Shown here piece after piece: positions 61,092 through 64,000 of a stretch of 64,000 bases of DNA. Position numbers and translations under genes: made by a program. The number at the start of each line of letters is the position of its first letter. The stretch's first letter is position 1. This DNA is from Bdellovibrionales bacterium (GTDB taxonomy: Bacteria > Bdellovibrionota > Bdellovibrionia > Bdellovibrionales > UBA1609). Below the pieces are notes generated by a model. That model worked only from the letters and a program-made list of their open reading frames with translations. It did no database searches and was not told where the DNA came from. Location: assembly GCA_965199825.1 (NCBI GenBank), contig OZ241329.1, positions 736,001 to 800,000 on the forward strand, written 5' to 3'.

Positions 61092-61180
61092 ATAGGAGCG
61101 ATAGACTTCGAAATGATTTTAGGTCAAAGGTCGACAAGCCTTGTCATTTGGGATATGAAAAATATTTTAGGGGTAATAGC

Positions 61181-61543
61181 GTGCAAGATCAAATCACGTA
61201 CATGGGTTACATGTGGGTTCAAATTGAAGATGGAATTTTAACTTTCGGTATCAACGAGTCAGGACTCGATGAGTTTACCGAAATCAATGCGGTCGATTTG
61301 CCTGCCGAAAATGACAGCGTCGAACCTGACGAAGTCTGTGGCGAGATCGATACCGATCAAGGCCCAATGAATTTATATTGTCCGGTTCAAGGCAAAGTTG
61401 TCGAGATCAACGAAGCGGTCGTTGAGAATCCTTCGCTCATTCAAGAAGATTGCAACGGCGATGGCTGGTTATTTAAAGTTGAGGCAACTAACTCGAGCGA
61501 CGTGGATGAGTTTGCTTCGGCTTCGACTAATGATGCGGATTAA
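61181..61543 (+). CDS. Glycine cleavage H-protein homologue lacking the lipoyl lysine
   Basis: WV...G...GI, VDLP, LYCPVQGKVVEINE..V.NP.LI..D..GDGWLFKV; ESVK is replaced by DTDQ. GTG start at 61181 after AGGGG. Confidence 0.8.
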   Translation: MQDQITYMGYMWVQIEDGILTFGINESGLDEFTEINAVDLPAENDSVEPDEVCGEIDTDQGPMNLYCPVQGKVVEINEAVVENPSLIQEDCNGDGWLFKVEATNSSDVDEFASASTNDAD

Positions 61544-61555
61544 CGTATTCAAATA

Positions 61556-61610
61556 TCCTAAAAGCTCAGACATGCGGTCGCCATTAGGCGATCCGAACTC
61601 GCTTTTAGGA
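61556..61610 (+). repeat. Structured hairpin element, copy A
   Basis: TCC-TAAAAGCTCAGACATGCG-[GTCGCC ATTA GGCGAT]-CCGAACTCGCTTTTA-GGA. Confidence 0.75.
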
Positions 61611-61750
61611 CATTCGAATACTTAAACCTTGGGGATGGTTTTTTTGTGAGATTTTTTTGACGATCATGCCCGGACTCAGATAAATATATTTTGTTGTTCT
61701 TATGATCGAATAACTTAACAAAGCTACAAGTAAATTGTCAAAGATGCTAA

Positions 61751-61775
61751 TCGCGACTGACGTCGCGACCAAAAA
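61751..61775. repeat. REP-like palindrome
   Basis: TCGCGAC-TGAC-GTCGCGA followed by CCAAAAA, like the element at 615-650. Confidence 0.4.
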
Positions 61776-61825
61776 GCAGCCTCATTGGACCGTAAACGAA
61801 ACTAGGCAGTTGGACTGTATTCGCA

Positions 61826-62290
61826 TTAACGGTTGTTACAGCGCAGATCTACAATTTTGTCGTAGCGCTCATTCGTATTAGGCAATATTCGAATACTGAG
61901 TGTATGAAATTCGACTCCCTGAGCGACGGTGCTTTCGTCTTTCGAGTTAAAATCAGGCCAGTGATTACGCCAGCTGTATCCAAATTGCTCACAAATTCTG
62001 CTAAAAGCGTCATACGTCGACTTTACAACAAACTCTTGCCCATTTTCCTGAATCCTTACGTTTTTCAATAAAGCACCTCGAGACGAAGGCTCGATCGATT
62101 CGACGACAAAAGAGTTATCTAGCTGCATGACCGCTTGATCATAGGCCTTGACGATTTCCGTCGCTGGGACCTCTGCCGATTGGCTCGAAGTAGTCTTAAC
62201 TGAAATTGCGTTGGCAACGCCTGCGACCATAAAATTCAATGTAAGTATCAATAAATAATATTTTACAGATTGAGCTTTTCGTTGATTCAT
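61826..62290 (-). CDS. Hypothetical secreted protein
   Basis: GAGG RBS before the ATG at 62290; signal peptide ending GVANA. Confidence 0.7.
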   Translation of the reverse strand: MNQRKAQSVKYYLLILTLNFMVAGVANAISVKTTSSQSAEVPATEIVKAYDQAVMQLDNSFVVESIEPSSRGALLKNVRIQENGQEFVVKSTYDAFSRICEQFGYSWRNHWPDFNSKDESTVAQGVEFHTLSIRILPNTNERYDKIVDLRCNNR

Positions 62291-62435
62291 TGAGAACCTC
62301 TTTTGTTTAGGTCTCATTCTGCAAACGCTGGACTACTTTCTTAAGCCACTAATTCTAACCTACTCGCCGCGATGGCAATCTTAAGATTTTAAATTACAAA
62401 ATACGGCATTTTATGTCTGAAAAATGTCTCTTCGC

Positions 62436-63110
62436 TCAAAATTTAGTCACCGAAAAACTTTGGGACATCAGTGGCATAGGCGCAGTCATTTTTGCAGCGA
62501 AGGACTGCTTTTGCTCCGGGCACGATTTTTTGAGTGGATCGTTTTTTGATAAAGCGGTTCGAGTGTTCTCCACCATTGTTTCTTGGATGGTTGCCGTACG
62601 CCTTAATCGCTGACTCAGGAGATCACGCGAGCGTTCGAAGTCTTTAAATTCTTCCAAAGTCATAGCAAACCGGATGTCCACCTGAAGTTCATCCCCAGCG
62701 TTATAAAGTCGTGCCCGCTCTTTGAGTTTTTTTGCAGGCGACGCTTTTGCCACTTCTTTCTCAAGTGCGCGCTTGGAGCCCTGTGCAAGTTTCAACCAAT
62801 GCTCGGCATTTTTAGGCGTGATCACACTGCAAATTCGATTGGCTTTAGAGATCGAAAGCTGCCCCGAAGCGATTTGTAATTTGAGCTCAGGGATCAAGGC
62901 ACATTTTTTAGCAACTTTATTAAAAATACTGATGAGCTCTTCAGTCATATTGAGCTTGTTGCAGGTAAAATCAAAAAGTGATCGACTCCCATAAACATAA
63001 TGGGTTTTTGCTCGCCAAACATTTTCGATTGAAAGCACCAATTCCGCATCTGAAATATTTTTGACCGACACAGCCTTGAGTACGCGAAAATAAATTTTTT
63101 GATGATCCAC
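62436..63110 (-). CDS. DUF222-like N-terminal domain of the HNH-endonuclease-associated family; HNH domain absent (truncated or degenerate)
   Basis: AGGAG RBS. ELV..I..V......YGSRSLFDF....L.......KVA......PEL...I.SG.LSISKA..I..VIT..N...W, then RDLLSQ and KNDPLKK, where full-length members continue into CxxC/HNH. Family assignment is by eye. Confidence 0.6.
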   Translation of the reverse strand: MDHQKIYFRVLKAVSVKNISDAELVLSIENVWRAKTHYVYGSRSLFDFTCNKLNMTEELISIFNKVAKKCALIPELKLQIASGQLSISKANRICSVITPKNAEHWLKLAQGSKRALEKEVAKASPAKKLKERARLYNAGDELQVDIRFAMTLEEFKDFERSRDLLSQRLRRTATIQETMVENTRTALSKNDPLKKSCPEQKQSFAAKMTAPMPLMSQSFSVTKF

Positions 63111-63346
63111 AATTCGCTCCTACTTAATAAAGCGAAATCTATCAAAAAAAATATCCACTGCAAATTGATATAAATAAATATTGTAGGTTATTGATCGGGC
63201 GAAATTTCCGGTGGTGGCTTTTACTTTGTCAAAAAAATTTGAGCGGGCACGACTCTTTACGTTTAACGCTGAACTCAGCGACACTAACCTATTTTAAAAA
63301 ATCCCAATCTCAACTCGAACACGATCTCTAGACTAAGGAATTAAGA

Positions 63347-63423
63347 GGCTTAAAAGCGAGTTCGGCTTGGCACGCGATTGCGCAGGCAATCGAGTGCCAA
63401 ACGCATGTCTGAGCTTTTAAGCC
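63347..63423 (-). repeat. Structured hairpin element, copy B (inverted relative to A; overlaps the spoVR stop)
   Basis: Minus strand: GGCT-TAAAAGCTCAGACATGCG-[TTTGGCACTCGATTGC CTGC GCAATCGCGTGCCAAG]-CCGAACTCGCTTTTA-AGCC. Confidence 0.75.
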
Positions 63424-64000
63424 CCTTGATTCCCCATTGGCTGACTTAAAAACTGCGAGCCATCAAAACTAACGATTCTTTTATCACCATCAACGATAGT
63501 GGCGACATGGACGGGTCTGCTCCAAATTGCAAAAAGATTTTGTAAGGTCGCATTCATATACTCGCCCTGCATTTCGATACCTTCGTACATGTGCTGAAGC
63601 AGCAGCTCACCTCGATTGTTAAAGTTGGCATCGACCACCGAAATTATGGGTTGGCCAAAATTGGTAAGCTGAAACAAAAACTTCTTTTTGATCAGCTCAA
63701 AATCGCGGGTGTCGACTTCGTATTGGTTGGTGCGCTTATTAAATTTGTAAACAAACATTTTATTTTCGACACAGAACTCTTCGGTCAAAAATTCATCGAT
63801 AAACGTGACGTCGTTGTAGTGCTTGCGGACTTCAAAAATTTTTTTGCGGCCAAGGCCTGTTTGTTTGTCCCAGTTCTTTTTTAGAGAAATGTCGTTGCAC
63901 TCTGACCATTCTCTGCCGAATTGGCCTTTGTTCCAGCGCATCTCGATATTGCGAAAGAGTTCGATGCCCACTTTATAGGGATTGAATCCTGTGGGCGACA
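63417..64000 (-). CDS. spoVR: SpoVR family protein (C-terminal part; starts beyond the window)
   Basis: NPYKVGIELF..IE, YNDVTFIDEFLT, NFGQP.I.V.D.N...GELLL.H. Confidence 0.9.
   Translation of the reverse strand, partial: SPTGFNPYKVGIELFRNIEMRWNKGQFGREWSECNDISLKKNWDKQTGLGRKKIFEVRKHYNDVTFIDEFLTEEFCVENKMFVYKFNKRTNQYEVDTRDFELIKKKFLFQLTNFGQPIISVVDANFNNRGELLLQHMYEGIEMQGEYMNATLQNLFAIWSRPVHVATIVDGDKRIVSFDGSQFLSQPMGNQGA

Follow-up and report, generated by a model that had tools for sequence, protein, structure and literature searches.

Many bacterial hairpin repeats are without a known mobiliser. ERIC/IRU elements share a 127-bp consensus with conserved ends and a TA duplication. The NTS/SRM repeats are read by Ssn GIY-YIG nucleases, which recognise one DNA strand by structure and sequence together (PMC11893778). 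CGTC REPs carry an unpaired terminal CGTC/TGTC tag on an 8-9-bp stem with a 4-5-nt loop and a CCA tail, within 20-40 nt (PMC3733652). Here we describe a hairpin repeat found in a stretch of 64,000 nucleotides from a predatory Bdellovibrionales bacterium (contig OZ241329.1, positions 736,001 to 800,000; G000:C1:736001-800000, where G000 is the genome itself), called the window below. Two copies of the hairpin, one behind a gcvH-like gene and one behind spoVR, enclose an interval of 1.87 kb. An initial annotation had read them either as structured 3'-untranslated-region (3'-UTR) RNAs or single-stranded DNA (ssDNA) recognition hairpins with a protein-read internal loop, or as the ends of a mobile or invertible cassette associated with the DUF222/HNH family. 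We found that the hairpins are copies of a dispersed, gene-less repeat. The DUF222/HNH cassette reading is wrong, and the loop is the interesting part.

The repeat and its position behind genes

The perfect 18-bp and 15-bp inverted repeats of the initial annotation are present in the window (arms 61559-61583/63395-63419 and 61593-61624/63334-63365). As it had described, the inner stems of the two copies are unlike and their loop halves identical, and Pfam placed copy 1 behind the stop of a GCV_H gene and copy 2 behind that of spoVR. The variable paired stems it had reported were also found, but the outer ones proved longer than it had stated, 27 nt in copy 1 and 19 nt in copy 2 by anchored extension. 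Each copy folds as a single rod, with RNA-parameter z-scores of -7.3 to -8.7 and equal stability in 0 of 200 shuffles, on both strands. No Rfam family matched either copy at the gathering threshold, and a terminator scan called neither rod.

The window pair are not the sole copies. A pattern search with a stem filter gave 35 candidates in G000, of which 15 were retained by eye. A covariance model trained on 39 copies, 9 of them from these 15, returned precisely the same 15 copies from this genome. In the order-wide search, in which at most 35 candidates were scored per genome, the model found the family in 27 of 121 genomes, own genome included, in a patchy distribution. The search of the genome and its relatives and the covariance model, both proposed in the initial annotation, spoke for a real family. 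The strict pattern found copies in 4 of 40 relatives and, because it found them in merely 2 of 300 other genomes of the phylum, we consider that strict patterns undercount. A scan of genome contigs gave at least 122 stretches, most of them without stems and discarded as chance; true copies were found in Bdellovibrionota, in Dependentiae and in one Luteibacter genome. In viral contigs this unpermuted form gave 4 matches, none with stems, and BLAST against plasmids and phages gave chance-level matches only. The closed genome G027 has at least 35 copies. In the Dependentiae genome G354 (L388, L392, L397, L399) there is a composite, about 250 nt long, that has the core as its first module and contains other conserved hairpins as well. 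No description of the family was found in the literature, subscription papers and figures not being covered. We concluded that the family is a real and apparently undescribed variant of gene-less hairpin repeats.

In the 39 aligned copies the core reads, on one strand, (G)CGAGTTCGG, inner hairpin, CGNATGTYYGAGC. The loop columns were invariant in this alignment, which was partly set by the search pattern, and loop variants do occur among the covariance-model matches. The outer arms are about 12 to 75 nt long and unlike between loci. Two-sided changes were present at 16 of the 18 aligned outer pairs; cells with such changes numbered 214 compared with 103 in shuffles, and 0 of 500 shuffles reached 214. 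The covarying family with a constant internal loop was upheld. In G234 two copies 1 kb apart have the same core, but their arms, about 50 nt long, are for the most part unrelated, and nested copies facing opposite ways were found in G178 and G225. No tag was present at a fixed arm position in any of the 15 copies of G000. The initial annotation had recognised in the element no IS end, attC site or ribozyme core; there was no Rfam match, and neither attC boxes nor REP tags were found. The K-turn and known ribozyme and deoxyribozyme cores did not appear to fit.

The copies follow genes in a constant orientation. A gene 3' end lies on the GCTCAGACA side for 14 of the 15 copies in G000, four of which are behind tRNAs, and for 31 of 38 scorable copies in other genomes (G027 excluded). 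By simple ORF (open reading frame) calls, an arm overlaps the upstream ORF in 12 of the 49 copies that have one, both window copies included (7 and 17 nt), and in 28 of the 49 it starts inside the ORF or at most 10 nt from its stop. All eight arms adjacent to tRNAs have their start close to the tRNA end, at most 7 nt outside it and at most 12 nt inside it. Solitary copies between core genes are numerous. The genome G000 has two GcvH-like genes, that of the window (Table 1) and that of the gcv operon (G000:C1:1631585-1631977); a hairpin copy lies behind both, with a tRNA-Leu intervening at the latter. In G450 (L614:1-300) the far arm mirrors about 17 nt of adjacent sequence resembling a tRNA 3' end, at a contig edge where ARAGORN made no call. 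No other arm points as clearly to the copying of host sequence.

One pair of congeners showed a site that is filled in one genome and empty in the other. In G003 a carrier of about 210 bp with the core lies directly behind a TAA, while the site is empty in G333; a native terminator-like hairpin downstream is kept in both. At a site occupied in both genomes, both arms had changed together.

Proposed folding strand and permuted form

A permuted form of the core was sought by swapping its two halves. It reads TGTYTGAGC-NNN-GCGAGTT and is often closed by a stem on the other side. It was retrieved from viral contigs, both prophage-like and small, as well as from genomes of Bdellovibrionales and of the Xanthomonadales area, the host labels of viral contigs being our reading of their genes; the loop occurs in this form in unrelated phages and bacteria. 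In the viral-contig stretches the loop triplet was GNA (4 triplets) in 119 cases, GNB (12 triplets) in 11 and HNN (48 triplets) in 37. A GC-GNA-GC cap is thus present in 119 stretches compared with 48 for all 60 other triplets, and all four bases were found at N of the GNA triplets. After deduplication GNA, GNB and HNN counted 61, 10 and 35, with a flanking stem in 27, 0 and 5 respectively.

In the unpermuted copies, inner tips of the types c(GNA)g, c(GNAB)g or c(GNNA)g were found in 17 of 43 cases on the proposed folding strand and in 2 of 43 on the other. Outer-arm mismatches could be read as G·T 80 times on the proposed strand and 17 times on the other; 10 of 14 genome groups lean this way, 4 tie and none reverses. 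The permuted motif lay on the rep/zot sense strand in all nine distinct filamentous-phage loci, and small replicons have it next to Rep_trans genes and inside a Viral_Rep ORF. In DNA both GNA triloops and Py-GA-Pu tandems are highly stable; in RNA neither stands out. Taken together, the GNA rule, the tandem G·A pairs and the wobble bias point to folded ssDNA on the strand opposite to the upstream transcript. In the first alternative of the initial annotation, the branch of ssDNA recognition is thus favoured by the GNA rule, the inner tips and the arm wobbles, and the branch of a sense-strand 3'-UTR RNA is weakened.

In Vibrio-type filamentous phage contigs (L162, L472, L198, L211, L212, L224) a GC-rich hairpin is found at a distance of about 60-100 nt from the permuted motif, which is on its 3' side; the hairpin has a TAGTATTAC-like loop in some of the contigs. 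We presume that this hairpin may be a nick site.

Candidate mechanisms

On balance we think it probable that the constant internal loop is a site read on folded ssDNA by a protein acting in trans, in a repeat that sits behind stops and tRNA ends. The strand GCGAGTT...TGTYYGAGC would fold through tandem sheared G·A pairs and GNA-type tips, and a site-specific ssDNA nuclease or an HUH-type enzyme may nick it at or near the loop. Such a nick could mobilise the hairpin and also start fold-back copying from arm to arm. By this copying the arms would stay complementary, and the far arm would acquire the end of the host gene. Further, and here our proposal is tentative and rather doubtful, the loop might be an undescribed, permutable ssDNA module of tandem G·A pairs and pyrimidine mismatches, read in many phyla and small ssDNA replicons by one protein or through DNA's own chemistry. 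Nicking there would drive the fold-back copying of host gene ends into mirror-image arms, a palindrome-making mobility without a dedicated transposase.

Several observations weigh against a loop read on ssDNA. The covariation score was equally high when the partners were slid by +1, since a register shift of one base is common among the copies. Among the inner tips 26 of 43 are not GNA-type, the wobble count is inflated by related copies and is 5:5 in G000, and a crude wobble count of the inner stems gave the opposite bias, 49 to 34. The nine filamentous-phage loci are kin, and the motif is absent from VGJphi and VAI1. The overlap with upstream ORFs could equally mean that the element supplied the stop. 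In G003 and G333 the conserved carrier, about 210 bp long, brings the arms along with it, so that not every arm arises at its own site. The orientation tracks the upstream gene (14 of 15 copies in G000) and not the replichore (6 vs 9), and it makes the proposed folding strand the template of transcription, not the strand that is usually exposed. Finally, no mobilising or binding protein was found by profile searches, which can miss divergent enzymes. A copy was present at none of the 36 Y1, Y2 and integrase loci scanned (34 of them Y1), Y1 was unmatched in G027 and G003 and likewise in G002 and G019, and no Ssn-size GIY-YIG (PF01541) was matched in seven carriers (G000, G002, G003, G007, G019, G027, G030).

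The search for a mobiliser covered several enzyme classes. For each of Y1/RAYT, Y2, integron integrase, bacterial reverse transcriptase (RT), Ssn-size GIY-YIG and DUF222-HNH there was at least one carrier, complete or nearly so, in which no match was found. G000:C1 encodes 17 weak Y1_Tnp (RAYT-like) paralogs of 169-218 aa, all of them more than 10 kb from any copy; G001 has 16 but no hairpin copy. The strong Y1 matches inspected in G333 look IS605-type, and the ends of the G003 carrier matched 0 of 14 Y1 loci. Y2 was present in one of five carriers and an integron integrase over the TIGR02249 cut-off in none of the five; Y1, Y2 and the integron integrase were rejected as mobilisers. The PF01541 matches in the seven carriers were only frames of 514-655 aa, and G034 has a frame of 123 aa; divergent Ssn proteins may escape the Pfam model. 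G000 was also searched for an autonomous parent, a gene enclosed by the two halves of the core, and only pairs of known copies and one chance pair were found. Pfam scans of the permuted form's neighbours (57) and of proteins from arrays or cargo (29) gave no recurring mobility family beyond two phage integrases and two Rep_trans proteins.

The position behind genes could also be explained by a structured 3'-end RNA: folded in the sense transcript, the rod would serve for termination or stabilisation, and its loop would be read by an RNA-binding protein. The gene 3' ends on the GCTCAGACA side agree with it, the sense strand folds well as RNA, and the tRNA-Leu copy has A and T tracts like those of a bidirectional terminator. 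We nevertheless regard this RNA as unlikely: the GNA rule of the permuted tip holds on the opposite strand, the arm wobble bias disfavours the sense strand, UUCG or GNRA tips were found in 0 of 43 inner hairpins of that strand, the native terminator-like hairpin is still downstream at the filled/empty pair, and no Rfam family was matched. A folding strand antisense to the upstream transcript would be accounted for if the sense transcript were reverse-transcribed into it, as in retron msDNA. Such retro-mobilisation is very improbable. PF00078 was matched in all five carriers first tested, but 17 of 41 genomes have a match anyway, and by our own class assignments the enzymes look unrelated and no copy lies beside any of the six RT loci read. 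The only RT match of G000 (G000:C2:130-3363, L591) resembles a eukaryotic Ty3/Gypsy retrotransposon pol, for which reason the 12-kb side contig C2 is probably eukaryotic contamination. Similar pairs of a helix-turn-helix protein and a retron-like RT of 300-330 aa were seen in G027 (L594), G002 (L595) and G019 (L025:8481-9768); that of G019 is 1.7 kb from a hairpin copy, inside an apparent tRNA-linked island.

Recombination sites of the attC type, at which small cargo genes between convergent core genes would be captured and shuffled by way of folded single strands, were suggested by arrays in G027, G030 and G000, where same-direction copies alternate with small, mostly secreted-looking genes and often end in one inverted copy, and by a structure that is conserved with little sequence. 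We hold this to be improbable. The alignment had no RYYYAAC/GTTRRRY pairing, no carrier of five had an integron integrase over the cut-off, many copies are alone between core genes, and the tandem arrays repeat their spacers, as plain duplication would give. There is little to recommend a priming or host-factor signal of the primosome-assembly type either, converting single-stranded intermediates to double-stranded ones and riding as a passenger on mobile hairpins and small replicons. ColE1 does contain GAGCGTAGCGAGT at 1332-1344, between the annotated replication region and rop, where 6 of 200 shuffles reached one match with at most one mismatch, and a PriA-loading ssiA signal has been described behind the ColE1 origin (PMC3167613). 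The motif also adjoins or lies in replication genes of small replicons, as noted above. The 13-nt match is however the GNA tip only, which the Bdellovibrionota form lacks, phiX174 matched at chance level only, and VGJphi and VAI1 are without the motif. The cassette served by the DUF222/HNH family is largely refuted and we give it next to no credence. In its favour the inverted pair brackets an insert absent from relatives, and two neighbouring copies each precede a DUF222-like gene. Against it, a copy is nearby for only 2 of the 27 paralogs and for none of the other 25, the breakpoints are at TCGTGCCC, and the protein is unmatched in the carriers G027 and G007. Inversion or excision at the hairpins, which had been suggested, was not seen either: single contigs of assembled reads run unbroken through each copy, and no such joint was among the 15 joints listed of 48, contigs being prone to drop rare variants.

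Of the cassette idea there remain an insert that relatives lack and the arrays of G027 (L011-L016, L631-L633), which interleave same-direction hairpins with small, variable, mostly secreted-looking genes between core genes and are often closed by one inverted copy; they are cassette-like, without an integrase found. The gcvH-like gene and spoVR are convergent neighbours in this bacterial family. The initial annotation had proposed to look for empty sites joining them; at the loci of 29 relatives the two genes abut in 5 cases, and different inserts are present in others. Because the genes are directly adjacent in relatives, the 1.87 kb is an insert. Neither the cargo nor the DUF222-like protein was matched in the 29 relatives' loci and 10 metagenome loci, within the DNA fetched, and an Atlas search with the cargo protein was blank. 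The features are listed in Table 1.

Table 1. Hairpin copies, host genes and interval features, in positions of the window.
Feature	Position	Strand	Remarks
Hairpin copy 1, whole rod	61537..61629	- (predicted folding strand)	Outer arms about 27 nt; left arm includes last 7 nt of gcvH-like gene
Copy 1 core	61564..61602	-	Constant internal loop GCGAGTTCGG / CGCATGTCTGAGC (folding strand) around 6-bp inner hairpin
Hairpin copy 2, whole rod	63337..63433	+ (predicted folding strand)	Arms 19-21 nt; spoVR-side arm includes last 17 nt of spoVR
Copy 2 core	63356..63414	+	Internal loop of copy 1 around long inner hairpin; tip c(GCAG)g on folding strand
GCV_H-family host gene	61148..61543	+	Stop anchors copy 1
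spoVR-like host gene, 3' part	63417..64000	-	Stop anchors copy 2
163-aa ORF (cargo)	61826..62317	-	Signal-peptide-like hydrophobic N-terminus, judged from sequence; without family or paralog; bystander in variable interval
Truncated member of 27-copy DUF222-like/HNH gene family	62436..63110	-	HNH domain lost; part of separate repeat system
CGGGCACGA repeat at truncation point of DUF222-like gene	62517..62525	+	Further copies 62709-62717, 63244-63252

The loss of HNH in the DUF222-like gene was confirmed, since the 224-aa ORF is a 3'-truncated paralog, 89% identical to an intact HNH-bearing gene 6 kb away. The name DUF222 is weak; the ORF has no Pfam match and the name came from an Atlas lead only (12% of one cluster). 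The homology that it shares with the paralog begins and ends exactly at TCGTGCCC, a repeat distinct from the hairpins, with 361 matches genome-wide compared with about 38 expected. This second repeat, also written CGGGCACG, is found in tandem arrays that precede DUF222-like/HNH genes and adjoin at least one Y1-like gene (for example G000:C1:246223-246820, 257827-258051 and 474500-475236), and is also encoded inside HNH genes (KKSCP and ERARY codons). Possibly, CGGGCACG and the DUF222-like/HNH genes are a repeat-nuclease system of their own. We concluded that the genes between the window copies are passengers in a variable interval and that each convergent host gene carries its own copy.

Meaning and comparison with described systems

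The present analysis contributes the permuted form, found across phyla, and the evidence on the strand. What is recognised comes down to about 20 constant bases in two circular permutations, apparently on one strand only. Such a core gives a short, defined bait for pull-down, and the enzyme so obtained could be a new one that acts on specific ssDNA sites, of the Ssn or HUH type. If the arms preserve a record of copying between them that extends into host genes, it becomes possible to test how perfect palindromes originate. Should the loop be only a stable fold that selfish repeats maintain, what we have described is an orderly new family of repeats and of modest interest.

ERIC/IRU and MITE-like palindromes are similar in forming rods of 100-200 nt behind genes, with orientation bias and nested insertions. 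ERIC copies share terminal sequence and the copies here do not; a TA near the cores is uninformative for this comparison because it is self-symmetric. Integron attC sites are likewise strand-selective folded DNA with little sequence conservation, in arrays with small cargo genes; here there are no R''/R' boxes, no IntI and many solitary copies. Flavo-1 (RF01705) gave one sub-threshold match, elsewhere, over five genomes or records.

CGTC- and GTAG-tagged REPs are also extragenic palindromes in clusters and inverted dimers, and CGTC REPs occur without a linked transposase and may have a tag reading TGTC (PMC3733652). The copies described here differ from them as rods of 90-200 nt with variable arms and no arm-end tag, in which TGTY is internal and flanked by a further stem. 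The motif words were not found in the text and four supplementary files of that paper, its consensus figures being outside the comparison. With REPINs and their RAYTs the repeat shares gene-less hairpin units, tandem clusters that repeat their flanks, presence or absence between relatives and a probable single-stranded intermediate (PMC3116915, PMC2817692). REPINs conserve their ends and flank a RAYT gene, whereas here the centre is conserved and none of the 36 transposase or integrase loci has a copy. None of the 15 copies in G000 has a GTAG/GGAG head on a short conserved terminal palindrome, and the arms are not conserved.

The NTS/SRM repeats are, like the present one by inference, dispersed hairpins read on one DNA strand; the NTS consensus tip is GC-GMAV-GC, and SRM starts with HGTC where the permuted form here starts with TGTY (PMC11893778). 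The SRM formula of that source fits 0 of the 15 copies in G000, the seven carriers gave no match to a small GIY-YIG protein, and what is constant here is an internal loop, which occurs in two permutations and has a variable stem on either side. The copies thus fell outside NTS/SRM repeats, REPINs and CGTC REPs alike. By analogy, the repeat would function most like the NTS/SRM repeats and resemble the REPINs in its behaviour in the genome.

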